From: an uncultured Chloroflexia bacterium
GTDB taxonomy: Bacteria > Chloroflexota > Limnocylindria > Limnocylindrales > CSP1-4
DNA: 64,000 nucleotides
Direction: 5' to 3'
Assembly: GCA_963721545.1 (NCBI GenBank)
Contig: CAVRKB010000007.1
Span: 388,851-452,850, forward strand
The translations under genes were made by a program, and so were the position numbers. The stretch's first letter is position 1. The number at the start of each line of letters is the position of its first letter. Shown here piece after piece: positions 202 through 30,721 of this stretch. The notes beneath the pieces are model-generated. The model was not told the DNA's origin. It ran no database searches and saw nothing but the letters and a program-made list of their open reading frames with translations.

Positions 202-456
202 ATGGCAGTCCGCATCCGGCTGACGCGCGTTGGCGCGACCAAGCAGCCGACCTACCGAGTCGTCGTCGCCGACGGCCGCAGCGCCCGCGACGGGCGAGCG
301 ATCGAGATCATCGGGCACTACAACCCGCGCACGGAGCCGGTCACCTTCGTCGTCGACGAGGACAAGGCGAAGTCCTGGCTCTCCAAGGGCGCGCAGCCCT
401 CGGACACCGTCCTGCGCCTGTTCCGGAACGCGGGCATCGTCCCCGCCGCCAAGTAG
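202..456 (+). CDS. rpsP: 30S ribosomal protein S16
   Basis: 84-aa [45 protein letters not shown]... is typical S16. AGGAGG lies 13 nt upstream of ATG 202. Confidence 0.95.
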
Positions 457-466
457 GGAGGGCACG

Positions 467-700
467 ATGGCAGCCAAGGATCTGGTCGAGTACGTCGCCA
501 AGTCGCTCGTCGACGACCCCGATGCCGTGACCGTCGAGGTCGTGGAGGAGGACGGGGCGACGGTGATCGAGCTCCACGTCGCAGAAGACGACATGGGCAA
601 GGTCATCGGCCGCAACGGCAGCGTCGCCAAGGCCCTGCGCACCCTGCTCAAGGTGACCGCCGCCCGCGATGGCGAGCCGGTCCAGCTCGAGATCCTCTGA
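467..700 (+). CDS. KH-domain RNA-binding protein (YlqC/UPF0109 type)
   Basis: 77 aa starting at ATG 467 inside ORF 230..700. It has the GXXG loop GKVIGRNGSVAKALR and the conserved position between rpsP and rimM. Confidence 0.85.
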   Translation: MAAKDLVEYVAKSLVDDPDAVTVEVVEEDGATVIELHVAEDDMGKVIGRNGSVAKALRTLLKVTAARDGEPVQLEIL

Positions 701-12407: not shown

Positions 12408-12434
12408 ACGTGGGTGACCCCCACGTTTCTTTTT
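12408..12434 (+). terminator. Canonical intrinsic terminator inside the nusA leader (candidate attenuator)
   Basis: ACGTGGG-TGACC-CCCACGT followed by TTCTTTTTG. It lies between the promoter-like box (12372) and the nusA SD/GTG (12465/12475). Confidence 0.6.
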
Positions 12435-14260: not shown

Positions 14261-16151
14261 GAGCGGCACCCGCGGCCGGCGCGGACCGCGCAAGCCGCCG
14301 CGTCGAGACGGCGGGTTCAACGGGACGGGCGTCCAGACGCTCGATCCGCGCGAGCGTGGCGCCATCGAGCTGCCGGGCACGATCACGGTCAAGGAGCTCG
14401 CCGAGCTCCTCGGCGTCAACCCGGCCGACATCATCCGCGAGCTGATCAAGAGCGGCATCTTCGCCACGATCAACCAGCTCATCGACCGCGACACCGCGTC
14501 GCTGGTCGCCGGCGAGCTCGGCTACGAGGTGGCCGAGACCGAGGCCGCCGGACGCCGGCGTCGACGCCGACGGCGACGGCGCCGGTGGCCGAGGCGACCA
14601 AGGAAGTGCTGTACGAGGAGGACGACGCGTCGCTCCTCCAGCCGCGCGCGCCGATCGTGACCGTCATGGGCCACGTCGACCACGGCAAGACCAGCCTGCT
14701 CGACGCGATCCGGACGACCGAGGTCGCGGCCGGCGAGCGGGGCGGGATCACCCAGCACATCGGCGCCAGCGAGGTCACCCACGACGGCAAGCGCGTCGTG
14801 TTCCTCGACACGCCGGGCCACGAGGCGTTCACCGCGATGCGTGCCCGCGGCGCGAAGGTGACCGACATCGCGGTCGTGGTCGTCGCGGCCGATGACGGGG
14901 TCATGCCCCAGACGCTCGAGGCGATCAGCCACGCCAAGGCGGCCAAGGTGCCGATCATCATCGCGCTCAACAAGATCGACAAGCCGGACGTCGAACCCCG
15001 ATCGGGTCAAGACCGAGCTGACCGAGGCCGGGATCGTGGTCGAGGAGTACGGCGGCGACGTGCCGCTCGTGCCGGTCTCGGCCAAGACCCGCATCGGGCT
15101 CGACGAGCTGATCGAGATGATCCTGCTCGTGGCCGACCTCCAGGAGCTCAAGGCCAACCCGAAGCGCGACGCCATCGGCACGATCGTCGAGGCCAAGCTC
15201 GACAAGGGCCGCGGCCCGGTCGCCACGGCGCTCGTCCAGACCGGCACGCTCAAGGTCGGCGACATCATCGTCGTCGGCGAGACGTTCGGGCGCGTCCGCG
15301 CGCTCGAGAACGACATGGGCAAGCGGGTCACCAAGGCCGGGCCGTCGAGCGCCGTCGTCATCCTCGGCCTGTCCGAGGTGCCGGAGGCCGGCGACATCCT
15401 GCGCGTCGTCGACGACGAGAAGGCCGCGCGCACGATGGTCGAGAGCCGCAAGGCGGCGGCCGCCGCGAAGACGGGCGAGGGCAGCGGTCGCGCGACGCTC
15501 GAGGACCTCTACAGCCAGATCCAGGCCGGCCAGGCCAAGGAGCTGCGGATCATCCTCAAGGCGGACGTGTCCGGCTCGCTCGGGGCGATCACCCACGCGC
15601 TCGAGCAGCTCGACCAGGACGAGATCCGGCTCAACGTCCTGCTCGAGGGCGCCGGCGACATCACCGACAACGACATCATGCTGGCGGCTGCGTCGAACGC
15701 GATCGTCGTCGGCTTCAACACCAAGATCACCGACACCGCCCGCCGGGCGGCCGAGGCCGAGGGCGTCGACGTCCGCCTGTACGACATCATCTACAAGCTG
15801 ACCGACGACGTCGAAGCCGCGCTCAAGGGCCTGCTCGAGCCCGAGATCGTCGAGGTCGTCGAGGGTCGCGCCGAGGTCCGCCAGGTCTTCCGTGTCGGCA
15901 AGAGCACGGTCATCGCCGGATCGTTCGTGACCGACGGCCGGATCGTCCGCGGCAACGCCCGGGTGTGGCGCGGCGGCAAGATCATCGCCACCGACCGGAT
16001 CGAATCGCTGCGCCGCTTCCGCGACGACGTCCGCGAGGTCCAGCAGAACTACGAGTGCGGCATCGGCCTCGCCAACTTCCATGACCTCGAGGAGGGCGAC
16101 ATCATCGAGTGCTTCACCTCGCAAACGGTGTCCCGCGTCGCCGCGGGCTGA
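14247..16151 (+). CDS. infB: Translation initiation factor IF-2, short form (frame breaks near 14550 and 14992)
   Basis: Three pieces. 14247.. gives [27 protein letters not shown]. 14585.. gives [19 protein letters not shown]...DTPGHEAF...ALNKIDKPD. 14892..16151 gives [11 protein letters not shown]...[17 protein letters not shown]...ADVSGSLGA.... Confidence 0.9.
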
Positions 16152-16298: not shown

Positions 16299-16835
16299 AT
16301 GAGCCAGCGAACAGAGCGAGTCGACGAACTCCTGCGGCAGGAGATCGGCGCGATCCTGGCCAGGGAGGTCGCGGATCCGCGGATCGGCTTTGCCACGATC
16401 ACGTCGGTCGAGACCACGCAGGACCTGCGCCACGCCAAGGTGTGGGTCAGCGTGATCGGCCAGGCGGCCGAGCGCGACGCGGCGATCGCGGCGCTGCGCC
16501 ACGCGATGCCGTTCGTCCGCCACGAGCTGGGCCGGCGGCTCCGGATCCGGCGGATCCCGGACCTGCACGTCCACCTGGACGACACGGCCGAGCGCGGTAC
16601 GCGGATCCTCCAGCTGCTCGCCGAGCTCGAAACCGGGAGCGTGTCGGATCCGGACGCCCCGATCGCCGAATCGCTGCCCACGCCGGTGCCACGCCTCGGC
16701 CAGCCCGACGACCTGCCCGAGGAGCCGCCGTCGGCGGTCCGGCCGCCGGTCCCACCGCGGCCCCGGGCTCGACGCTCGTCCGCCCGCCCGACCTCGCCGC
16801 GCAAGCCGGCCCGCTCGCGCAAGGGTCCCCCGTGA
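16299..16835 (+). CDS. rbfA: Ribosome-binding factor A, with a Pro/Arg-rich C-terminal extension
   Basis: ATG 16299: MSQRTERVDELLRQEIGAILAREVADPRIGFATITSVETTQDLRHAKVWVSV...IRRIPDLHVHLD. Confidence 0.9.
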   Translation: MSQRTERVDELLRQEIGAILAREVADPRIGFATITSVETTQDLRHAKVWVSVIGQAAERDAAIAALRHAMPFVRHELGRRLRIRRIPDLHVHLDDTAERGTRILQLLAELETGSVSDPDAPIAESLPTPVPRLGQPDDLPEEPPSAVRPPVPPRPRARRSSARPTSPRKPARSRKGPP

Positions 16836-17851
16836 CCGTCGCGCTCGACAGCTACGTCGACGCCGTCCCGCAGGCCGTCGTCGACCGGTTGCGCGGCGCC
16901 CGGCGCGTGCTGGCGGTCGGCCACGAGAACCCGGACGCGGACACGCTCGGGGCGACGCTCGGGGTCGTCCGCCTCGTCGAGGCCCTCGGCGGCACGGCCG
17001 ATCCGGTGTGCACGGACCCGGTGCCCGACCTGTACGCGTTCATGGACGGCATGGACCGCTTCAAGACCGATCCGGACCCGGCCGCTCCGTACGACCTCGT
17101 GGTCATCTCCGATTGCGGCTCGCTCGAGCGGATCGGGGAGGTCGGCGTCCGCCATGCCGAGCTGTTCGAGCGGCTGCCGCGGGTCGTCATCGACCACCAC
17201 GCCTCGAACGACTCGGACGGGGCGGCCGACTGGATCGACCCGGATGCGGCCGCGACGTGCGAGATGGTGACGGTCCTCGCGGCGCGGCTCGGGGTCCCGC
17301 TCGATGCCGACGACGGCGCCCTCGCGGAAGGCCTGATGGCCGGCATCGTGATGGACACCGCCACCTTCGCCCATCCGAACGCGACGCCGCGCACGCTGGT
17401 CGTGTCGGCCGCGCTGGTCGAGGCCGGCGCGCCGCTGGCCGACATCTCGCGCCGCCTCTACCGCGTCAAGCCGGACGTCCAGCTGCGCCTGTTCGGGATC
17501 GTCCTCGAGCGGCTCCAGTCATCGGACGACGGGCGGATCGCCTGGTCGAGCGTGACCGACGCGGACTTCACCAGCACGGGCGCCGACCGGGCCCACTCGG
17601 AGGGGATCATCGACCTCCTGTCGCAGGCCGAGCGGGCCGAGGTGACCATCGTGTTCAAGGAAGCCGGCCCGGCCACCCGCGTGTCGGTGCGGACGCGGCC
17701 CGGCGGCGTCGACGCCACCGTGCTGACGGGAACGTTCGGGGGCGGGGGCCACGCCCGGGCGGCCGGCGCGACCGTGGACGCGCCGCTGGCCGAGGCCCGG
17801 CCGCGGGTCATCGCCGAGGCTGCCCGGCTCGTCGCCCAGCTGGCCCGCTGA
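16832..17851 (+). CDS. nrnA: DHH/DHHA1 phosphoesterase NrnA (oligoribonuclease / pAp phosphatase type)
   Basis: GTG 16832 (GTGA overlap with rbfA): VGHENPDADTLG, VVISDCG, VIDHH, GIVMDTATF, GGGGHARAAG. Confidence 0.85.
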   Translation: MTVALDSYVDAVPQAVVDRLRGARRVLAVGHENPDADTLGATLGVVRLVEALGGTADPVCTDPVPDLYAFMDGMDRFKTDPDPAAPYDLVVISDCGSLERIGEVGVRHAELFERLPRVVIDHHASNDSDGAADWIDPDAAATCEMVTVLAARLGVPLDADDGALAEGLMAGIVMDTATFAHPNATPRTLVVSAALVEAGAPLADISRRLYRVKPDVQLRLFGIVLERLQSSDDGRIAWSSVTDADFTSTGADRAHSEGIIDLLSQAERAEVTIVFKEAGPATRVSVRTRPGGVDATVLTGTFGGGGHARAAGATVDAPLAEARPRVIAEAARLVAQLAR

Positions 17852-17853
17852 CC

Positions 17854-18843
17854 ATGGCCCGCTCGTCGCTCGGGCCGGGCCTCGACGGCATCCTCGTCGT
17901 CGCCAAGGCCCCCGGTCCGACCTCGCACGACATCGTCGCGCTCGTCCGCCGGCTGGCCGCCACGAAGCGGGTCGGCCACGGCGGCACGCTCGATCCGTTC
18001 GCCGCGGGCGTGCTCCCGATCTTCCTCGGCCACGCGACGCGGATCGTCGAGTACCACCTCGGCGATCGGAAGGCCTACCGCGCGACGGTCTGCTTCGGCG
18101 CGTCGTCCTCGACCGACGACCTCGAGGGCGAGCTGACGCCGTCGGACGGGCCGCCGACCACGCGCGAGGCGGTCGATGCGGCACTCCCCGGGCTGACCGG
18201 CACGATCTCGCAGCGACCGCCGGCCTACAGCGCGATCAAGGTCGCCGGCCGGCGCGCCTACGCCATGGCACGTGCCGGAGAGTCGGTCGAGCTGGCCGCC
18301 CGCCAGGTCACGATCCACGCCATCGACATCGTGTCGTGGGACGACAGCGACCCGCTGCGCCCGATCGCCGTGCTCGACGTCGACTGCTCGGCCGGGACCT
18401 ACGTGCGGGCGATCGCGCGGGACCTTGGCGCAATGGTCGGTGGCGCAGCCTATCTCGGGTCACTGACGCGCACGGCGTCCGGTCCGTTCACGCTCGACCT
18501 CGCCAGCTCGCTCGACGACATCCGGGCTGCGGCCGCCGACGAGCCGAACGGCCTGCTGCCGCTGCTCCTGCCGCTCGACACCGGCCTCGACGCCTTCCCC
18601 GAGGTCCAGCTCACCGCCGACGAGGTCACCGCCATCGCCCGCGGCCAGTTCGTCCGACCGGCGGGCGGCCTGCCGGCCCGGGCCGATCGATACCGGCTGC
18701 GCGATCCCTCGGGCACGCTCGTGGCAATCGCCACGGCCTCCAGCGGCCGGCTCGCCCCCGACAAGGTGTTCGTTTCCCCGGCCCACGGCCGGCGTCCCGG
18801 TCGCCTGACCGCCGCGCATGCACGTCGTCCAGGGGGTCGATGA
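17854..18843 (+). CDS. truB: tRNA pseudouridine(55) synthase TruB
   Basis: ATG 17854: GILVVAKAPGPTSHDIV...KRVGHGGTLDPFAAGVLPIFLG...YSAIKVAGRRAY...CSAGTYVRAIARDLG. Confidence 0.95.
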   Translation: MARSSLGPGLDGILVVAKAPGPTSHDIVALVRRLAATKRVGHGGTLDPFAAGVLPIFLGHATRIVEYHLGDRKAYRATVCFGASSSTDDLEGELTPSDGPPTTREAVDAALPGLTGTISQRPPAYSAIKVAGRRAYAMARAGESVELAARQVTIHAIDIVSWDDSDPLRPIAVLDVDCSAGTYVRAIARDLGAMVGGAAYLGSLTRTASGPFTLDLASSLDDIRAAAADEPNGLLPLLLPLDTGLDAFPEVQLTADEVTAIARGQFVRPAGGLPARADRYRLRDPSGTLVAIATASSGRLAPDKVFVSPAHGRRPGRLTAAHARRPGGR

Positions 18844-19576
18844 GCTCCGGCCCGCGCTCGGTCCCGTCTTCGTCGTCATCGGCGTCTTCGACGGGATGCA
18901 TCTCGGGCATGCCTATCTGCTCGAACGCCTCGTGAGCGAAGCGGCAACCCGTGCTTCCCGGCCGACCGTCATCACGTTCGATGCCCATCCGGACCAGGTC
19001 CTGATGGGGACGGCGCCGCCGCTCCTGCTCGACGCCGGCGAGCGACTGGAGCGGCTCGAGGCGGCCGGCGTGGCGGTCACCGTCGTCCAGCCGTTCGACG
19101 AAGCCCTCCGGCAGACGCCGTACGACGTGTTCGTCGAGCGGATCCGCGCCCGCGTCCCGCTCAGCGGGTTCCTGATGACCCCCGACGCGGCCTTCGGCTT
19201 CGAGCGCCGCGGCACGCCGGCGACGCTGGGGGACCTGGGCGCACGTGATGGCTTCGACGTCGTGGTCATCCCGCCGTTCACCCTCGATGGCGAAGAGGTC
19301 CGCAGCTCGGCCATCCGCGAGGCGATCGTCGGAGGCGACCTCGCGACGGCGGCGCGGCTGCTTGGCCGGCCCGTGACGATCACGGGATCCATCGGCGGCG
19401 CGGTCGACGGCCGCACGCGACTCGACTTCAGGCTGCCCGTCGCCCTGCCGCCCGATGGCGACTACGCGGCGACCGTGGATGGGGCTCCACTCACCCTCAG
19501 GCTCGTCAGCGGCGATGCCTACCTGCTCGGAGAGGCGTCCAACGGGCGCGTGACGGTCGTTCTCGGCGGGGCGTGA
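18818..19576 (+). CDS. ribF: FMN adenylyltransferase (RibF) with a shortened, degenerate riboflavin-kinase domain
   Basis: 252 aa. N-terminal nucleotidyltransferase motifs are present (VVIGVFDGMHLGHAYLL, ITFDAHP, SSAIREAI). Only ~66 residues follow the LLGRP junction, and the PTAN-type kinase motif is absent. Confidence 0.8.
   Translation: MHVVQGVDELRPALGPVFVVIGVFDGMHLGHAYLLERLVSEAATRASRPTVITFDAHPDQVLMGTAPPLLLDAGERLERLEAAGVAVTVVQPFDEALRQTPYDVFVERIRARVPLSGFLMTPDAAFGFERRGTPATLGDLGARDGFDVVVIPPFTLDGEEVRSSAIREAIVGGDLATAARLLGRPVTITGSIGGAVDGRTRLDFRLPVALPPDGDYAATVDGAPLTLRLVSGDAYLLGEASNGRVTVVLGGA

Positions 19577-19823: not shown

Positions 19824-19824
<1 letters not shown>
19597..19824 (-). CDS. Small hydrophilic hypothetical protein (75 aa)
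   Basis: Strong G/C third-position bias across the ORF. The start shares one base with the stop of the upstream adenosyltransferase gene (TGATG), which suggests translational coupling. No recognisable family. Confidence 0.55.
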
Positions 19825-20387
<563 letters not shown>

Positions 20388-20474
20388 GGTGCCATTGTGC
20401 GGGATCGGCCCGCTGGCAGGTCGCTGGCCGCGGCCGGCCCCGTCACGCTCGCGAATCGCTCCGATTCCCACTTC

Positions 20475-20537: not shown

Positions 20538-20807
20538 GTGCCGCTCGCGCGGGAAGAGAAGCAGGAGATCATCACCGGGTTTGCCACCAAGGAAGGTGAC
20601 ACCGGTTCCCCGGAAGTCCAGGTCGCGCTCCTGACGGAGCGGATCAAGGAGCTGACCGGGCATCTCAAGAGCTTTCCCAAGGACAATCATTCGCGCCGCG
20701 GCCTCCTCAAGCTCGTCGGCCAGCGCCGCCGCCTTCTCGCCTACCTGATGAAGAAGGACAGCGCGCGCTATCGAGTCGTCATCGGACGGCTCGGACTCCG
20801 CCGCTAG
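20538..20807 (+). CDS. rpsO: 30S ribosomal protein S15
   Basis: GTG 20538 follows GGAGGA at 20527: [69 protein letters not shown]. Confidence 0.95.
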
Positions 20808-20821
20808 GCGCCACCGCATCC

Positions 20822-20845
20822 GGGCCCCGGCACAGACCGGGGTCC
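20822..20845 (+). promoter_or_regulatory. 9-bp hairpin in the rpsO-pnp intergenic region (rpsO terminator or pnp leader structure)
   Basis: GGGCCCCGG-CACAGA-CCGGGGTCC (one G-U pair), followed by a repeat of CGCATCCGG. By analogy, a processed hairpin in this spacer controls pnp expression in E. coli. No U-tract. Confidence 0.35.
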
Positions 20846-20928
20846 TGTCGCATCCGGCGCCCGGGGCCAGAGTGGCCGACCTGCCGCAGGTCGTCACCTT
20901 CCTCCACGACCAAGGAGGAACGATTCCC

Positions 20929-23514
20929 TTGTCTCAGACATTCGAGACGCAATTCGGTGGTCGCACGCTGACCATCGAGACCGGCAAGCTCGCACGGCTT
21001 GCCGGCGGTGCCGTCACCGTCCGTTACGGCGACACCATGGTGCTCGGGACGGCCAACCGGTCGGACCCGCGCCCAGGCCTTGACTTCTTCCCGCTCACGG
21101 TCGAGTTCGAGGAGCGGATGTATGCCGCGGGCAAGATCCCGGGCGGCTTCATCAAGCGCGAGGCGCGCGCGTCCGAGGCGGCCACGCTGGCCGCCCGGCT
21201 CACCGACCGCCCCGTCCGCCCGCTCTTCCCCGAGGGCTACAAGGACGACATCCAGCTCGTCATCACCGTCCTCTCGACCGACCAGGAGAACGAGCCCGAC
21301 GTCCTCGGCACCGTCGCCGCGTCGGCCGCGCTGACGATCAGCGAGATCCCGTGGGCCGGCCCCGTCGGCGCCGTCCGCGTCGGCCGGATCGATGGCGAGT
21401 TCGTCGTCAACCCGACGTACAGCCAGCTCGCCGACTCGGAGCTCGACCTCGTCGTCTCCGGCACGCGCGACGCGATCATGATGGTCGAGGCGGGCGCCAA
21501 GCTCCTGCCCGAGGCGGTCATGGCCGAGGCGATCCTGTTCGGCCACCGCGCCCTGCAGCCGCTCATCGACATCCAGGAGCAGCTCCGCGAGGCGGCCGGC
21601 AAGCCCAAGAGCACGCCGTTCCTCGAGGCCGGCACGGGCTCCGTGCTTGCCTTCGCCGACGGCGTCGCCGCCGGTGACGAGTTCGTCGTCGTCGACGTCG
21701 AGACGACCGGCACCGATCCGAAGATGGCCGACCTCGTCGAGATCGCCGCGGTCAAGGTCAAGGGCGGCAAGATCACCGACCGCTGGTCGACCTTCGTCAA
21801 TCCCGGCCGGCCGATCGTCGGCAACCAGATGCACGGCATCAAGGACGCCGACGTCAAGAAGGCCCCGAGCCCGGCCGACGCCGCGCGCCAGGCCCTCGCG
21901 TTCATCGGCGACTCGAAGGTCGTCGGCCATTCGGTCGGCTTCGACCTCGGGTTCATCGAGGCCGCGCTCGCGGACGGCACCCACTTCGACTCGGGCCGCT
22001 ACCTCGACACGCTGACGATCGCCCGCGAGGGCTATCCCGACCTCGAGAACTACAAGCTCCCGACGCTGTCGCATTTCTTCGGGATCGAGCTCGCCCAGTC
22101 GCACCGGGCACTGCCCGACGCCGAGGCGACCGCCGAGCTGCTGATCTGGTTCGGCAACGACCTGCCGGGTCGCATCGCCGCCCTGCGGACCGGCATCGCC
22201 GATTCGTTCCGGGCGACCCGGACCGGTGGCGACAGCAAGGCCATCCAGGAAGCCGCCAAGCGCGAGGCGCGTGTCAGCAAGGCGCTGTTCAGCCTCATCC
22301 TCAAGAAGACCGCCCGCCAGCTCGCCCTCGACGAGGGCATCCGCATGGACGGCCGCGGCGTCACGGAGCTCCGCCAGATCTCGGTCGACGTCGGCGTCCT
22401 GCCGCGCGCCCACGGCTCCGGCCTGTTCACCCGTGGTGAGACCCAGGTGCTGACCATCGCCACGCTCGGCTCGTCCTCGGACGTCCAGCGCATCGACACG
22501 ATCAGCCCGAAGACCGAGAAGCGCTACATCCACCACTACAACTTCCCGCCGTACTCGACCGGCGAGAACAAGCCGATGCGCGGCCCCAGCCGGCGCGACA
22601 TCGGCCACGGCAACCTCGCCGAGCGGGCGCTCATCCCGGTGCTCCCGAACCACGAGGACTTCCCGTACGTCATCCGCCTCGTGTCCGAGTGCATGTCGTC
22701 CAACGGCTCGACGTCGATGGCCTCGACCTGCGGCTCGACGCTGGCGCTGATGGATGCCGGCGTGCCGATCTCGGCCCCGGTCGCCGGCGCGGCGATGGGC
22801 CTGATCAGCGAGCCGGATGGCCGCTTCGTGGTCCTGACCGACATCCTCGGCAAGGAGGACTCGGTCGGCGACATGGACTTCAAGGTGACCGGCACGCGGG
22901 ACGGCATCACCGCCCTGCAGATGGACATCAAGGTCCAGGGCATCAACGAGGCGATCATCCGTGATGGCCTCAAGCAGGCCCTGGCGGCCCGCCTCGAGAT
23001 CCTCGACAAGATGACCGAGGTCATGCCCGAGGCCCGCGGGGAGATGAGCGACTTCGCGCCGCGCATCACCACGATCAAGATCAACCCGGAGAAGATCCGC
23101 GAGATCATCGGCAAGGGCGGATCGATGATCCGCAAGATCCAGGAAGAGACCTCGACCGAGATCAACGTCGAGGACGACGGCACCGTGGAGATCGCGGCCG
23201 TGTCCGGCGAGAACGCCCGGAAGGCGATCACCTGGATCGAGAGCCTGACCCGCGAGGTCGAGATCGGCTCGCTGTACCTCGGCAAGGTCACCCGGATCAT
23301 GGGCTTCGGCGCGTTCGTCGAGATCCTGCCGGGCAAGGAAGGCCTCGTTCGCATCGGCGAGCTGGCCGACTACCACGTCCCGACGGTCGAGGACGTCGTC
23401 GCCGTCGGCGACGAGGTCATGGTCGTCGTGACCGAGGTCGACCGGCAGGGCCGGATCAACCTGTCGCGCAAGGCCGCGATGCAGCGCCACCTGGCCAAGG
23501 ATCCGGTCGCGTAG
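20929..23514 (+). CDS. pnp: Polyribonucleotide nucleotidyltransferase (PNPase) with an inserted DEDDh exonuclease domain
   Basis: Probable TTG 20929, 10 nt after AAGGAGGA (the ORF is open from 20872). PH1 (FETQFGGRTL...FFPLTVEFEERMYAAGKIPGGF), PH2 (RMDGRG...HGSGLFTRGETQVL...SNGSTSMASTC), KH (GKGGSMIRKI) and S1 (GKVTRIMGFGAFVEI) are all in one uninterrupted frame. It is ~860 codons long because of the insert at 21673-22167. Confidence 0.95.
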   Translation: MSQTFETQFGGRTLTIETGKLARLAGGAVTVRYGDTMVLGTANRSDPRPGLDFFPLTVEFEERMYAAGKIPGGFIKREARASEAATLAARLTDRPVRPLFPEGYKDDIQLVITVLSTDQENEPDVLGTVAASAALTISEIPWAGPVGAVRVGRIDGEFVVNPTYSQLADSELDLVVSGTRDAIMMVEAGAKLLPEAVMAEAILFGHRALQPLIDIQEQLREAAGKPKSTPFLEAGTGSVLAFADGVAAGDEFVVVDVETTGTDPKMADLVEIAAVKVKGGKITDRWSTFVNPGRPIVGNQMHGIKDADVKKAPSPADAARQALAFIGDSKVVGHSVGFDLGFIEAALADGTHFDSGRYLDTLTIAREGYPDLENYKLPTLSHFFGIELAQSHRALPDAEATAELLIWFGNDLPGRIAALRTGIADSFRATRTGGDSKAIQEAAKREARVSKALFSLILKKTARQLALDEGIRMDGRGVTELRQISVDVGVLPRAHGSGLFTRGETQVLTIATLGSSSDVQRIDTISPKTEKRYIHHYNFPPYSTGENKPMRGPSRRDIGHGNLAERALIPVLPNHEDFPYVIRLVSECMSSNGSTSMASTCGSTLALMDAGVPISAPVAGAAMGLISEPDGRFVVLTDILGKEDSVGDMDFKVTGTRDGITALQMDIKVQGINEAIIRDGLKQALAARLEILDKMTEVMPEARGEMSDFAPRITTIKINPEKIREIIGKGGSMIRKIQEETSTEINVEDDGTVEIAAVSGENARKAITWIESLTREVEIGSLYLGKVTRIMGFGAFVEILPGKEGLVRIGELADYHVPTVEDVVAVGDEVMVVVTEVDRQGRINLSRKAAMQRHLAKDPVA
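21673..22167 (+). other. DEDDh (DnaQ / RNase T-like) 3'-5' exonuclease domain embedded in pnp
   Basis: Exo I is FVVVDVETTG, Exo II is VVGHSVGFDLGF and Exo III is HRALPDAEATAELL, in the canonical order and spacing. PNPase all-alpha linker sequence flanks it on both sides. Confidence 0.85.
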
Positions 23515-23540
23515 GGGCAACGCTCCAGCGCGAACGCAGG

Positions 23541-29035: not shown

Positions 29036-30721
29036 ATGGCCACCGACCGCGTCCCGACCGGCAACGACGAGCCGCTCCGGATCATCCCGCTCGGTGGGGT
29101 GGGGGAGATCGGCAAGAACATGTACGTGTTCGAGTACCGCGACGAGATCGTGGTCATCGACTGCGGGCTGATGTTCCCCGACGAGGAGATGTTCGGGATC
29201 GACCTCGTCATCCCCGACATCACCTACCTCAAGGAGCGCCGCGCCAACGTCAAGGCGTTCCTCATCACCCACGCCCACGAGGACCACGTCGGCGCGCTGC
29301 CGTACGTCCTGCCCGAGTTCCCCGGCGTCCCGGTCTACGCCTCGACCCTGGCCCGCGGCCTGCTCGGCAACAAGATCAAGGAGCACAAGCTCCACAACAA
29401 CCCGCTCGTCGCGCTGGAGCCCGGCGACGAGGTGACGATCGGCGCGTTCACGGTCATCCCGTTCCGCGTGGGCCACTCGATCCCCGACGCGATGGGGATC
29501 GCCCTGCGCACGCCGGTCGGGACCATCGTCCACACCGGCGACTTCAAGTTCGACCACACGCCGGTCGACGGCAAGCTGTCCGACTTCGCGATCCTGGCCA
29601 GGCTCGGCGAGGAGGGCGTCATCTGCCTGCTGTCCGACTCGACGCGCGCCGAGAACCCGGGCTACACGCCGTCGGAGCGGACGGTCGGCGAGGCCTTCCG
29701 CGAGATCATGGAGCCGCTCGAGGGCCGGGTCATCGTCGCGACCTTCGCCTCGAACATCGCCCGGATCCAGCAGGTCCTCGACGCGTCGGCCGAGATGGAC
29801 CGCAAGGTGGCGGTCATCGGCCGCTCGATGGAGCAGAACTTCCGGATCGCGACCGATCTCGGCTACCTGACCTACGAGCCGTCGCGGATCGTGCCCAAGG
29901 ACCGGATCAAGGACCACCCGGACGCCCAGCTCGTGATCGCCACCACCGGCGCGCAGGGCGAGCCGATGGCCGGCCTGGCCCGGATGGCCAACCGCGACCA
30001 CCGCTTCGTCGAGATCCAGCCGGGCGACACGGTCATCGTCAGCGCCAGCCCGATCCCGGGCAACGAGGAATACGTCTCGCGCACGATCGACAACCTGTTC
30101 AAGGCCGGCGCGAACGTCTACTACCACACGATCAAGCGCGCGCACGTCTCAGGTCACGCCAGCCAGGAAGAGCTCAAGCTCATGCTCGGGCTGACCAAGC
30201 CGAAGCACTTCATCCCGATCCACGGCGAGTTCCGGATGCAGGTCCAGCACGGTCGCCTCGCGATCGAGACGGGGGTCCACCCGGAGAACGTGTTCATCAT
30301 CGAGAACGGCACGCCGATCGAGTTCTACGCCGACGGCACGGCCCGGCGCGGCAGCCCGGTCACGGCGGGCTACGTGTACGTCGACGGGCTGTCGGTCGGC
30401 GAGGTCGGCGACGTCGTGCTGCGCGACCGGCGGGCACTGGCCAACGACGGCATCTTCATGATCGTCGTGACCGTCGACAAGCAGACCGGCTCGATCGTCG
30501 GCCAGCCCGAGATCATCACCCGCGGCTTCGTCCACCTCAACGAGCGCGACCCGATCATGGACGAGGCGGTCCGCCGGGTGATGCAGTCGATCGACACGCC
30601 GGGCGACCACATCAGCGAGATCGCCCTGCTCAAGACCCAGATCAAGGACGGCGTCTCGCGCTACCTGTACGAGCAGACGAAGCGGCGGCCGATGGTCTTC
30701 CCGGTCGTCGTCGAGGTCTGA
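29036..30721 (+). CDS. rnj: Ribonuclease J
   Basis: Intact 561-aa ORF from ATG 29036: LRIIPLGGVGEIGKNMYVFEY...ITHAHEDHVGALP...HTGDFKFDHTP...SDSTRAE...VSGHASQEEL.... Confidence 0.95.
   Translation: MATDRVPTGNDEPLRIIPLGGVGEIGKNMYVFEYRDEIVVIDCGLMFPDEEMFGIDLVIPDITYLKERRANVKAFLITHAHEDHVGALPYVLPEFPGVPVYASTLARGLLGNKIKEHKLHNNPLVALEPGDEVTIGAFTVIPFRVGHSIPDAMGIALRTPVGTIVHTGDFKFDHTPVDGKLSDFAILARLGEEGVICLLSDSTRAENPGYTPSERTVGEAFREIMEPLEGRVIVATFASNIARIQQVLDASAEMDRKVAVIGRSMEQNFRIATDLGYLTYEPSRIVPKDRIKDHPDAQLVIATTGAQGEPMAGLARMANRDHRFVEIQPGDTVIVSASPIPGNEEYVSRTIDNLFKAGANVYYHTIKRAHVSGHASQEELKLMLGLTKPKHFIPIHGEFRMQVQHGRLAIETGVHPENVFIIENGTPIEFYADGTARRGSPVTAGYVYVDGLSVGEVGDVVLRDRRALANDGIFMIVVTVDKQTGSIVGQPEIITRGFVHLNERDPIMDEAVRRVMQSIDTPGDHISEIALLKTQIKDGVSRYLYEQTKRRPMVFPVVVEV

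Follow-up and report, generated by a model that had tools for sequence, protein, structure and literature searches.

Few RNA enzymes keep their domain architecture as rigidly as polynucleotide phosphorylase (PNPase) does, from bacteria to human mitochondria. In the canonical enzymes (E. coli, 3GCM and 7OGK; S. aureus, 5YJJ; S. antibioticus, 1E3P; human, 3U1K), two RNase PH-like cores are joined by an all-α domain and followed by a KH and an S1 domain. The helical domain is the least understood part. In E. coli PNPase it is dynamic, lies on the face opposite S1/KH and lines the pore to the active site, and it is thought to control the access of NDP and phosphate (PMC2723993). All solved PNPases have at most 730 residues.

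The eukaryotic exosome comprises a PH-like Exo9 ring and an S1/KH cap together with the hydrolytic Rrp44 and the DEDD-family Rrp6. In human mitochondria, PNPase-SUV3 works in RNA decay with the DEDD hydrolytic 3′ exonuclease REXO2 (PMC7261184), and the Caulobacter degradosome contains PNPase and RNase D (PMC4245959). DnaQ-like exonucleases, such as those of PolC (2P1J, 9QPC), DinG (N-terminal, 8ZEF), Cas2-DEDDh (8FYC) and Pol III epsilon (1J53), are monomeric modules which recur as fusions or insertions in DNA polymerases, helicases or integrases; the PolC module is likewise internal.

Here we describe a PNPase whose all-α domain harbors an exonuclease domain of this DEDDh type. Its gene, pnp, lies within a window of 64,000 nucleotides from an uncultured Chloroflexia bacterium of the class Limnocylindria, where a sequence-only reading had first pointed to it. 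The open reading frame runs without interruption from 20872 to 23514 (880 codons), so the absence of a frame break stands. Since the homologue consensus begins with MSQTFETQ at a downstream TTG codon and most homologues have 860-864 amino acids, this TTG is taken as the real start. The product then has 861 residues, in line with the approximately 860 codons reported before. The gene order nusA-infB-nrnA-like-truB-ribF-rpsO-pnp is matched in an independent assembly, and the canonical truB-ribF-rpsO-pnp locus indicates that the fused enzyme is the housekeeping PNPase of Limnocylindria. Canonical PNPases have the same rpsO-pnp locus. The codon bias of the insert had been described as that of its flanks, and the figures agree: with a GC3 of 0.96, the insert falls within the range of its flanks (0.93-0.97), and its codon-usage cosine to the rest of pnp is 0.947, control chunks giving slightly lower values (0.869-0.940). 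The features are collected in Table 1.

Table 1. Features of the pnp locus, with positions in the window and residue numbers in the 861-residue protein
Feature	Position	Strand	Basis
NrnA-like DHH/DHHA1 gene, 3 kb upstream of pnp in conserved cluster	16832-17848		
rpsO (ribosomal protein S15), directly 5′ of pnp	20538..20807	+	Pfam Ribosomal_S15, E=3.4e-35
Shine-Dalgarno AAGGAGGA	20912-20919	+	read directly from sequence
TTG start codon of pnp	20929-20931	+	homologue consensus begins here
pnp, polynucleotide phosphorylase with embedded DEDDh exonuclease domain, 861 aa	20929..23514	+	Pfam, NCBIfam, alignment to solved PNPases
First RNase PH-like core, aa 1-215	20929..21573	+	Pfam RNase_PH + RNase_PH_C; aligns to S. 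aureus / E. coli PNPase residues ~17-235
N-terminal part of all-α domain: helices aa 195-207 and 210-223, loop 224-236, short pre-exonuclease helix 237-248	21511..21672	+	AlphaFold secondary structure
DEDDh (DnaQ-like, Pfam RNase_T) 3′-5′ exonuclease domain, aa 253-405	21685..22143	+	PF00929, TIGR00573, Foldseek, AlphaFold
Exo I motif FVVVDVETTG	21682-21711	+	as quoted in the sequence-only reading
Exo I catalytic D256 and E258	21694-21696, 21700-21702	+	234/234 family members
Exo II motif VVGHSVGFDLGF	21919-21954	+	as quoted in the sequence-only reading
Exo II catalytic D339	21943-21945	+	233/234 family members
Exo III motif HRALPDAEATAELL	22102-22143	+	as quoted in the sequence-only reading
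Exo III H392 and D397	22102-22104, 22117-22119	+	both 234/234 family members
Unbroken 39-residue helix aa 394-432, from Exo III into α domain; then helices 436-447 and 451-469 toward second PH core	22108..22335	+	AlphaFold, pLDDT 89-96
Second RNase PH-like core, aa 479-700	22363..23028	+	Pfam RNase_PH 1-130/130
Phosphorolytic R555-R556	22591-22596	+	second PH core; matches E. coli / S. aureus motifs
Phosphorolytic S594-T595-S596	22708-22716	+	second PH core; matches E. coli / S. aureus motifs
Phosphorolytic D648-M-D650-F-K652	22870-22884	+	second PH core, with D644 also present
KH domain, aa 714-771	23068..23241	+	Pfam KH_1, E=5e-11
S1 domain, aa 777-848	23257..23472	+	Pfam S1, E=5.1e-18

The protein is clearly recognized as a PNPase. 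The equivalog model TIGR03591 scores 937 bits (cut-off 525), its match falling in two stretches with the insert between them, and NF008805 scores 932 bits (cut-off 471). Pfam finds two RNase_PH, two RNase_PH_C, KH_1 and S1 domains, collinear with those of solved PNPases, as had been read from the sequence. Identity to E. coli PNPase is about 40%, with target-normalised TM-scores of 0.74-0.87 to the canonical structures. The phosphorolytic residues are identical to those of canonical PNPases. R555, R556, S594-T595-S596, D644, D648, D650 and K652 are invariant in a 90-sequence family alignment, and the E. coli equivalents of the phosphate- and metal-binding residues of the second core are R398/R399, S437-S439, D486, D492 and K494. 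Judged from these residues, the phosphorolytic site is intact. By homology to other PNPases, the enzyme is presumed to be a homotrimeric ring with a central channel.

The all-α linker is where the protein departs from its relatives. Homology to solved PNPases ends at about residue 245 (E. coli ~252) and restarts at about residues 435-442, which places the insert within the linker as previously proposed; only the first and last helices are recognizable in the alignment. A DEDDh domain and a long connecting helix, together about 190 residues, take the place of about 30-45 residues of middle α helices, a net gain of about 150 amino acids over E. coli PNPase (711 aa). Nothing occupies this position in the solved PNPases. 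The Pfam α-domain family PF03726 has no match in the fused protein and is seen in only a few homologues. The split α domain is a point of difference and no argument against PNPase orthology. The region first marked out, 21673-22167 (residues 249-413), encloses the Pfam exonuclease domain.

That the insert is a complete DEDDh domain with three motifs was well founded. The RNase_T family PF00929 matches over its full profile (1-164 of 164; E=1.3e-28; 101 bits, gathering score 24), at residues 272-424 of the 880-residue frame, i.e. 253-405 of the protein, and the significant DEDD match on which the claim depended is thus present. TIGR00573 gives 78.9 bits with the whole protein and 83 bits with the insert alone (cut-off 71.5). 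Exo I, II and III follow in canonical order, exactly as quoted, and H392 and D397 form the H-x4-D motif which defines the DEDDh subtype. The five catalytic residues (D256, E258, D339, H392 and D397) are invariant in 233-234 of 234 family members, among clades only 57% identical in the exonuclease domain. From these features we infer that the insert is a 3′-5′ exonuclease, predicted to be metal-dependent.

Among known exonucleases, the insert shares fold and DEDDh catalytic set with the modules of PolC, DinG, Cas2-DEDDh and Pol III epsilon, although its host is an RNA phosphorylase and theirs are enzymes of DNA metabolism. Matches to these proteins in the PDB, by sequence and structure, show 25-34% identity and rmsd values of 2.1-2.9 Å. 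By family and by structure, the insert best matches DNA enzymes (PRK07883 DEDD exonuclease, DinG, PolC, epsilon, Cas2-DEDDh, ExoX); the nearest structural neighbors (DinG, PolC, epsilon, ExoX) are monomeric, and the nearest non-PNPase relatives occur in VRR-NUC/FAN1, DinG, PolC and GIY-YIG architectures. Orn and RNase T chains are absent from the PDB sequence matches at E<=1e-5, as are their models from the best 25 NCBIfam matches; RNase T is a structural neighbor, weaker than DinG, PolC and epsilon. The catalytic set had been likened to that of Pol III epsilon, RNase T and oligoribonuclease. The PDB, NCBIfam and fold matches uphold a DnaQ/PolC/DinG type and not the RNase T/Orn type. As the nearest relatives are DNA-metabolism modules, homology does not imply an RNA substrate.

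Structure prediction supports a normal RNase H-like α/β DEDDh fold for the insert. It is modelled by AlphaFold at pLDDT 85-96 within a full-length monomer of moderate global confidence (pTM 0.69), and a separate junction model (pLDDT 84) superposes on the PolC exonuclease domain and Pol III epsilon with an rmsd of 2.1 Å over 163-172 columns (Foldseek, E ~1e-9 to 1e-12). In the model, the last exonuclease helix is continuous with the α-domain helices, which points to an exonuclease rigidly mounted on the α domain rather than loosely tethered. A fold search with the full model returned ordinary PNPases only, none informative on the orientation of the insert. The model being a monomer, the position of the insert relative to the channel is derived from homology to E. 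coli PNPase. On this basis, the presumed trimer would carry three exonuclease domains on the PH-ring face opposite the KH/S1 RNA-entry face, each beside a side pore leading to the phosphorolytic site.

Independent assemblies (JGI, ENA, NCBI, Logan) yield over 230 distinct full-length homologues with the same architecture, on contigs of up to 2.8 Mb. Among the matches listed, all named sources are Chloroflexota or Ca. Limnocylindrales, and PF00929 is present in 240 of 240 clusters at 90% identity. Ca. Limnocylindrus, about 70% identical, is the one full-length clade among them that is really divergent. The fusion is widespread, but within one class, Limnocylindria. A literature search found no description or characterization of a PNPase with a DEDDh insert. 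The architecture had been called undescribed, which holds for the literature; nevertheless it already sits in hundreds of automatically annotated public database entries and is thus undescribed rather than unseen. We conclude that the fused PNPase is a real, lineage-wide and uncharacterized variant of a known enzyme.

Three apparent extensions of this distribution were rejected. In Coriobacteriia (Slackia, Eggerthellaceae), the junction query matched past the exonuclease domain, but the open reading frames encode ordinary exonuclease-helicases of the DinG type with 1026-1045 aa (two loci were examined, and two more were rejected by analogy). Deeply divergent fused clusters were suggested by many representatives of the 50% clustering, which are 37-53% identical, but these are frameshifted or fragmentary calls of the same PNPase family; their ‘SSSSTSRRPA...’ stretches are the +1 frame of the pnp region. 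Finally, fusions in MAGs labelled Verrucomicrobiia, Patescibacteria and Polarisedimenticolia lie on short contigs (2-16 kb) and are 65-84% identical to the window junction, so that bin contamination is the simplest account, and they were excluded from the taxonomic spread.

Published KO lists of the CSP1-4 lineage provide some context on other nucleases. K00962, the PNPase KO, is absent from them, which argues against a second, ordinary PNPase. The pooled lists lack RNase II (K01147) and RNase R (K12573), and two lists lack dnaQ (K02342); Orn (K13288) and NrnA (K06881) are listed for freshwater CSP1-4 genomes. These lists are noisy and incomplete, the essential prsA and dnaN being likewise missing from one, so absences of RNase R/II, Orn, NrnA or DnaQ are weak hints.

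Taken together, the sequence data are best explained by a single housekeeping Limnocylindria PNPase. Probably, an ancestor of this class gained a monomeric DnaQ/PolC/DinG-type DEDDh module in the middle of the α domain, and catalytic competence has been kept since. The enzyme would then combine three Mg2+-dependent hydrolytic 3′-5′ sites, releasing NMPs with no need for phosphate, with three phosphorolytic sites, which release NDPs reversibly. Single-stranded RNA 3′ ends are the most likely substrate of the hydrolytic sites, which would be the phosphate-independent, irreversible partner of the phosphorolytic ring. They would trim tails or fragments which the PH site has let go, on which it stalls or which it would extend again, in a lineage possibly devoid of RNase II/R. 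Their RNA might arrive by way of the central channel or directly out of solution. REXO2, which works with the human mitochondrial degradosome, is a precedent for a DEDDh partner of PNPase in trans (PMC7261184). REXO2 (an Orn-type dimer) and RNase D (DEDDy) are separate partner proteins, whereas the Limnocylindria pairing is covalent and stoichiometric.

A more ambitious picture, which we consider rather unlikely, is that of a bacterial ‘mini-exosome’ in a single chain. The KH/S1 cap would capture RNA and feed it through the PH ring, to be shared between the phosphorolytic sites and three hydrolytic DEDDh sites held rigidly at the distal face, an independent and covalent reinvention of the Exo9-Rrp44 geometry; the same sites might also act on DNA 3′ ends where a separate DnaQ is lacking. 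The exosome likewise joins a PH ring and S1/KH cap to a hydrolytic 3′-5′ exonuclease. Its Rrp44 is attached to the ring on the side away from the cap, and it is on this side that the PNPase α domain lies and the insert would hence be placed. However, the exosome ring is catalytically dead and its nucleases are separate subunits (RNB/PIN; DEDDy), whereas the Limnocylindria ring is predicted from sequence to be phosphorolytically competent, with the DEDDh domain in the same chain and three copies per ring. Were this picture true, the cell could switch between reversible, NDP-yielding decay and irreversible, phosphate-free, NMP-yielding decay.

The insert might instead be a dedicated nanoRNase which finishes the 2-5 nt limit oligonucleotides of PNPase and replaces a missing Orn/NrnA-type oligoribonuclease. 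PNPase does leave a short oligonucleotide product (PMC11572968), the DEDDh enzymes Orn and REXO2 do such work in trans beside PNPase (PMC7261184, PMC6521605), and the insert would adjoin the side pore of the phosphorolytic site. Finishing of short oligonucleotides had already been suggested for this protein. The idea of a replacement is weakened by the NrnA-like gene 3 kb 5′ of pnp, in the same conserved cluster, and by the Orn and NrnA KOs in the freshwater CSP1-4 lists. Moreover, the insert is not Orn-like, its structural neighbors being general single-strand exonucleases. Both Orn and REXO2 form obligate dimers and have a 5′-phosphate cap, an arrangement not obviously open to one domain per protomer. 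A nanoRNase role is, on balance, improbable.

Equally doubtful to us is a DNA-end module which trims or proofreads DNA 3′ ends together with the Mn2+-dependent DNA polymerase/phosphorylase activity of some bacterial PNPases, or substitutes for DnaQ where dnaQ is missing. The affinities of the insert to DNA enzymes and to VRR-NUC/FAN1, DinG, PolC and GIY-YIG proteins, as well as the missing K02342, speak for it, and PNPase takes part in DNA repair in both Bacillus and Mycobacterium. On the other hand, the host protein retains all its RNA-specific features, with KH, S1 and an intact phosphorolytic site, and an rpsO-linked, translation-associated locus. Cleavage of RNA is also common among DnaQ-like domains of this clade, and sugar specificity is thus not fixed by homology. 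The KO absences are unreliable, and many bacteria without DnaQ rely on the PHP domain of DnaE.

An exapted DEDDh fold without catalysis, a structural, regulatory or RNA-binding module that rebuilds or gates the α-domain pore, would suit the proposed control of NDP and phosphate access by the α domain (PMC2723993), the insert taking the place of its middle helices. We regard it as very improbable, as the five metal-binding and general-base residues, which usually decay in inactivated DEDD domains, are invariant here across divergent clades. Furthermore, omega is well below 1, and the insert is, from the codon comparisons, under purifying selection (omega 0.12-0.34 in the exonuclease and 0.05-0.11 in the PH cores). 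These values stem from the nine closest comparisons only, since a GC3 of about 0.96 compresses dS and makes dN/dS unreliable at larger divergence. Lastly, an assembly chimera or recent foreign insertion confined to one contig, for which no support emerged and against which the sequence-only reading had already argued, is practically dismissed by an identical protein in a second, independent ENA assembly, the full junction in at least 18 GTDB species representatives, the more than 230 full-length homologues and the native codon usage.

With a housekeeping PNPase carrying an active module as the favored reading, a whole bacterial class appears to have rebuilt the PNPase helical domain around a second nuclease. 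A published survey puts Limnocylindria members at up to tens of percent of certain communities in soils, sediments and lakes (PMC13212565). Phosphate-dependent and water-dependent 3′-end nucleases in one predicted chain seem new to the literature. If the domain is active, the enzyme would be a natural fusion of phosphorolytic and hydrolytic 3′-5′ decay at fixed 1:1 stoichiometry, tractable by recombinant work and cryo-EM. It could then address how two chemistries are coordinated, what the α domain and pore do, and how PH rings recruit hydrolytic nucleases, a step toward the eukaryotic exosome.

The fusion also affects annotation. Many JGI records list the protein as ‘DNA polymerase III epsilon subunit family exonuclease’, and KEGG annotation apparently fails to assign it to K00962. 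For these two reasons, PNPase can seem missing from Limnocylindria genomes.

The sequence-only reading had described an uninterrupted pnp frame with a complete DEDDh exonuclease domain inserted between the two RNase PH cores, and it holds in every detail: the ORF, the Pfam and NCBIfam domains, the motif positions and the codon bias. The true start of pnp is TTG 20929, with a Shine-Dalgarno sequence (AAGGAGGA) nine bases before it, and this codon corresponds to the first residue of the homologue consensus. The product has 861 aa; residue numbers follow this protein and equal those of the earlier 880-codon frame minus 19. Pfam recognizes two RNase_PH, two RNase_PH_C, one KH_1 and one S1 domain. 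The profile search proposed with that reading also returned a significant DEDD match between the PH cores, an RNase_T/DEDDh domain covering profile positions 1-164/164 (E=1.3e-28, 101 bits; gathering score 24). The NCBIfam PNPase equivalog scores 937 bits (cut-off 525) in a match split into two stretches. The insert alone exceeds the cut-off of the DnaQ-family model TIGR00573 (83 bits vs 71.5), and its top-scoring models are DEDD-exonuclease, DinG and PolC. All three quoted exonuclease motifs were located (see table). The codon bias is shared as claimed: GC3 is 0.96 for the insert against 0.93-0.97 for its flanks, and the insert is indistinguishable from the remainder of pnp in its codon usage. 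The protein displays the sequence and fold features of a PNPase and of a DEDDh exonuclease, save an uninterrupted alpha domain.

Features of the pnp region (nt, window coordinates) and of the modelled insert (aa, fused PNPase)
Feature	Position	Strand	Remark
nusA	from nt 12433		upstream of infB
infB	from nt 14585		before DHH/DHHA1 gene
DHH/DHHA1 gene	nt 16832-17848	+	just upstream of truB, 3 kb from fused pnp
truB			between DHH/DHHA1 gene and ribF
ribF	nt 18818-19576		after truB
cob(I)alamin adenosyltransferase	nt 19824-20471	-	between ribF and rpsO; Pfam E=4e-63
rpsO	nt 20538-20807		next before pnp
pnp ORF	nt 20872-23514		without interruption
Exo I	nt 21682-21711		
Exo II	nt 21919-21954		
Exo III	nt 22102-22143		
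Antisense ORF	nt 20779-23520	-	913 aa, covers whole pnp
ABC transporter, then asd			downstream of pnp, before RNase J
RNase J	nt 29036-30721	+	metallo-beta-lactamase, beta-CASP, RMMBL and RNase_J_C domains; ~5.5 kb downstream of pnp
ftsK			after RNase J
Short helix	aa 237-248		AlphaFold model
DEDDh alpha/beta fold	aa 251-405		AlphaFold model
Exo III helix, unbroken	aa 394-432		AlphaFold model
Two further helices	aa 436-447, 451-469		AlphaFold model; entering second PH core

The alignment to solved PNPases ends at about aa 245 (E. coli ~252) and restarts at about aa 435-442, within the final one or two helices of the all-alpha domain. Therefore, ~190 residues take the place of 30-45 residues in the middle of the helical domain. 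An AlphaFold monomer built on a 90-sequence alignment reached a mean pLDDT of 76 and a pTM of 0.69, with residues 231-470 at pLDDT 85-96, and a model of the junction only (pLDDT 84) agrees with it. The low-confidence stretches are loops of PH1, PH2 and S1 and are probably owed to the shallow alignment (69-92% identity). In the model, the continuous Exo III helix suggests that the nuclease domain is held rigidly in place and does not hang on a flexible tether. A fold search with the full model retrieved no solved PNPase with anything comparable to the insert. The helical domain of E. coli PNPase is dynamic, occupies the torus face opposite S1/KH and lines a pore that offers another way into the active site, thought to serve the exchange of NDP and phosphate (PMC2723993). 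By homology, the DEDDh domains should form an additional crown on the distal side of the ring, beside the side pores.

We infer that the fused PNPase is very probably an active bifunctional 3′-5′ exonuclease, in which three phosphorolytic and three hydrolytic sites would be united in one presumed trimer. The predicted hydrolytic sites most likely work on single-stranded RNA 3′ ends, a reading to which we give about an even chance or slightly better. They would then form a phosphate-independent, irreversible partner of the reversible phosphorolytic ring, perhaps coupled to it, and would trim released fragments, tails, or ends which stall the PH site, possibly in a lineage devoid of RNase II/R. 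Activity, substrate, trimer geometry and any coupling are thus predictions, while the architecture with its conservation, integrity, locus and fold is shown by the data.

The gene lies in an orthologous housekeeping locus, a classic translation-associated cluster. The minus-strand adenosyltransferase gene breaks the otherwise co-directional truB-ribF-rpsO-pnp cluster, and it is likewise found between ribF and rpsO on an independent contig (L081). RNase J was taken to be the last part of a 1035-aa mechanical ORF that is too long and also holds the end of asd. Three RNA-decay genes are present inside the window: NrnA-like, PNPase-DEDDh and RNase J. The ORF antisense to pnp is typical of spurious ORFs at ~70% GC and GC3 ~0.96. 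The best NCBIfam match of the DHH/DHHA1 protein is the bifunctional oligoribonuclease/pAp phosphatase NrnA (NF053633; profile 9-300/317, 89 bits, below the equivalog cut-off of 350), which makes it a candidate nanoRNase. Alternatively, the insert itself could be a dedicated nanoRNase, compensating for a missing one. This is unlikely: the idea is weakened by the NrnA-like gene within the pnp cluster and, as far as the published lists go, by the Orn and NrnA KOs entered for freshwater CSP1-4 genomes (PMC13212565).

In the same source (PMC13212565 Source Data, 'Figure 2a,b CSP1-4 KO IDs'), the pooled freshwater and sediment lists skip K00962 (PNPase), which suggests, within the coverage of these lists, that the fused PNPase escapes KO assignment and that CSP1-4 genomes have no second, ordinary PNPase. 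As far as the lists were read, K02342 (dnaQ) and K01147 (RNase II) are missing from both and K12573 (RNase R) from the freshwater list (PMC13212565), but the lists are noisy and lack essential genes as well (prsA and dnaN from one list), so that these absences are hints only.

A role of the insert at DNA ends is improbable too. The closest solved sequence relative is the T. maritima PolC exonuclease (E=1e-23), followed by PolC, the S. aureus DinG exonuclease, Cas2-DEDDh, Cas-associated DnaQ and Pol III epsilon; no RNase T or Orn chain is found among PDB sequence matches at E<=1e-5, and the insert does not qualify as RNase T- or Orn-like. In the structural comparison DinG ranks first, before PolC, Cas-DnaQ and epsilon (rmsd 2.1 Å over 163-172 columns), with RNase T and ExoX behind them. 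Outside the PNPases, the nearest homologues share 41-47% identity and form part of DinG helicases, of PolC, or of fusions with VRR-NUC/FAN1 or GIY-YIG. Since its nearest sequence, structure and fusion relatives lie there, the insert is a member of the promiscuously fused, monomeric DnaQ-like clade, which leaves an RNA or a DNA substrate unfixed.

A non-catalytic role of the insert is highly improbable. D256, E258, H392 and D397 are invariant in 234/234 full-length members and D339 is kept in 233; the phosphorolytic residues R555/R556, S594-S596, D644, D648, D650 and K652 are invariant in the 90-sequence alignment. Between the two deepest clades, identity amounts to 57% in the exonuclease domain, 76% in the PH cores and 47-58% in the alpha helices. 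Compared at codon level with the nine closest GTDB loci, the exonuclease has an omega of 0.12-0.34, the PH cores one of 0.05-0.11 and the helical parts one of 0.19-0.57; these values are likely too high because a strong GC3 bias compresses dS. Given the conserved catalytic residues and the low omega, both catalytic centres appear to be maintained.

That the junction is an assembly artefact is very unlikely because it recurs across assemblies, and an artefactual fusion carries next to no weight. PF00929 and PNPase domains occur together in all 120 of the best 90%-identity clusters (84-93% identical to the window protein, 845-866 aa), drawn from JGI, ENA, NCBI and Logan assemblies with contigs up to 2.8 Mb, and an independent ENA contig encodes the identical 861-aa protein. 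When the junction region was searched exhaustively against 1.84 billion 50%-identity representatives, ~60 clusters matched at E<=1e-30, the majority fragments or frameshifted calls of the fused family; matches ranking below have unrelated architectures. One full-length fused member is clearly divergent (P0124, 864 aa, Ca. Limnocylindrus), and the insert is present in all of its best 120 relatives. Among 185,579 GTDB species representatives, the whole junction is covered at at least 18 loci, of which the plausible ones are all Chloroflexota/Limnocylindrales. The proposed search for PNPases with the same insert found many, and neither the clustered proteins nor the plausible junction matches listed among GTDB representatives place the fusion outside Limnocylindria. 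Judged from these sequences, the fusion is a trait of class Limnocylindria (NCBI lineage). A second lineage in Coriobacteriia was rejected, the extended junction matches there being DinG proteins. Three short contigs of 2.2, 4.8 and 16 kb (L008, L014, L016), found in GTDB representative MAGs assigned to Verrucomicrobiia, Patescibacteria and Polarisedimenticolia, bear a fused pnp of Limnocylindrales type that shares 65-84% identity with the junction in the window; these are probably bin contamination of soil MAGs.

The absence of an uninterrupted alpha domain is what sets the fused PNPase apart from ordinary PNPases. In the eukaryotic exosome, hydrolytic nucleases are attached to a PH ring capped by S1/KH, with Rrp44 opposite the cap. 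The likeness is topological (PH ring, S1/KH cap, hydrolytic nuclease); unlike the exosome, the fused PNPase appears to retain a catalytic ring and has the nuclease in the same chain. Functional likeness is offered by human mitochondrial PNPase-SUV3, which pairs with REXO2 (PMC7261184), and by the Caulobacter degradosome, in which PNPase is paired with RNase D (PMC4245959), but both pairings are in trans. Neither full-text searches of the openly accessible literature nor one inside the principal genomics paper on Limnocylindria turned up any account of a PNPase fused to a DEDD domain, although an earlier account may exist.

The fused sequences themselves are already abundant in public databases. 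Frameshifted 50%-identity representatives (P0133, P0137, P0150, P0172, P0177, P0178 and P0188 among others) contain Ser/Arg/Pro-rich stretches, which are out-of-frame translations of the insert (window 21647-22015, +1 frame), and such gene calls inflate the apparent diversity of the family in clustered databases. Automatic annotation names the fused protein PNPase or, in many JGI records (P0003, P0004 and P0005 among them), 'DNA polymerase III epsilon subunit family exonuclease'; the insert is the cause of this systematic misnaming.
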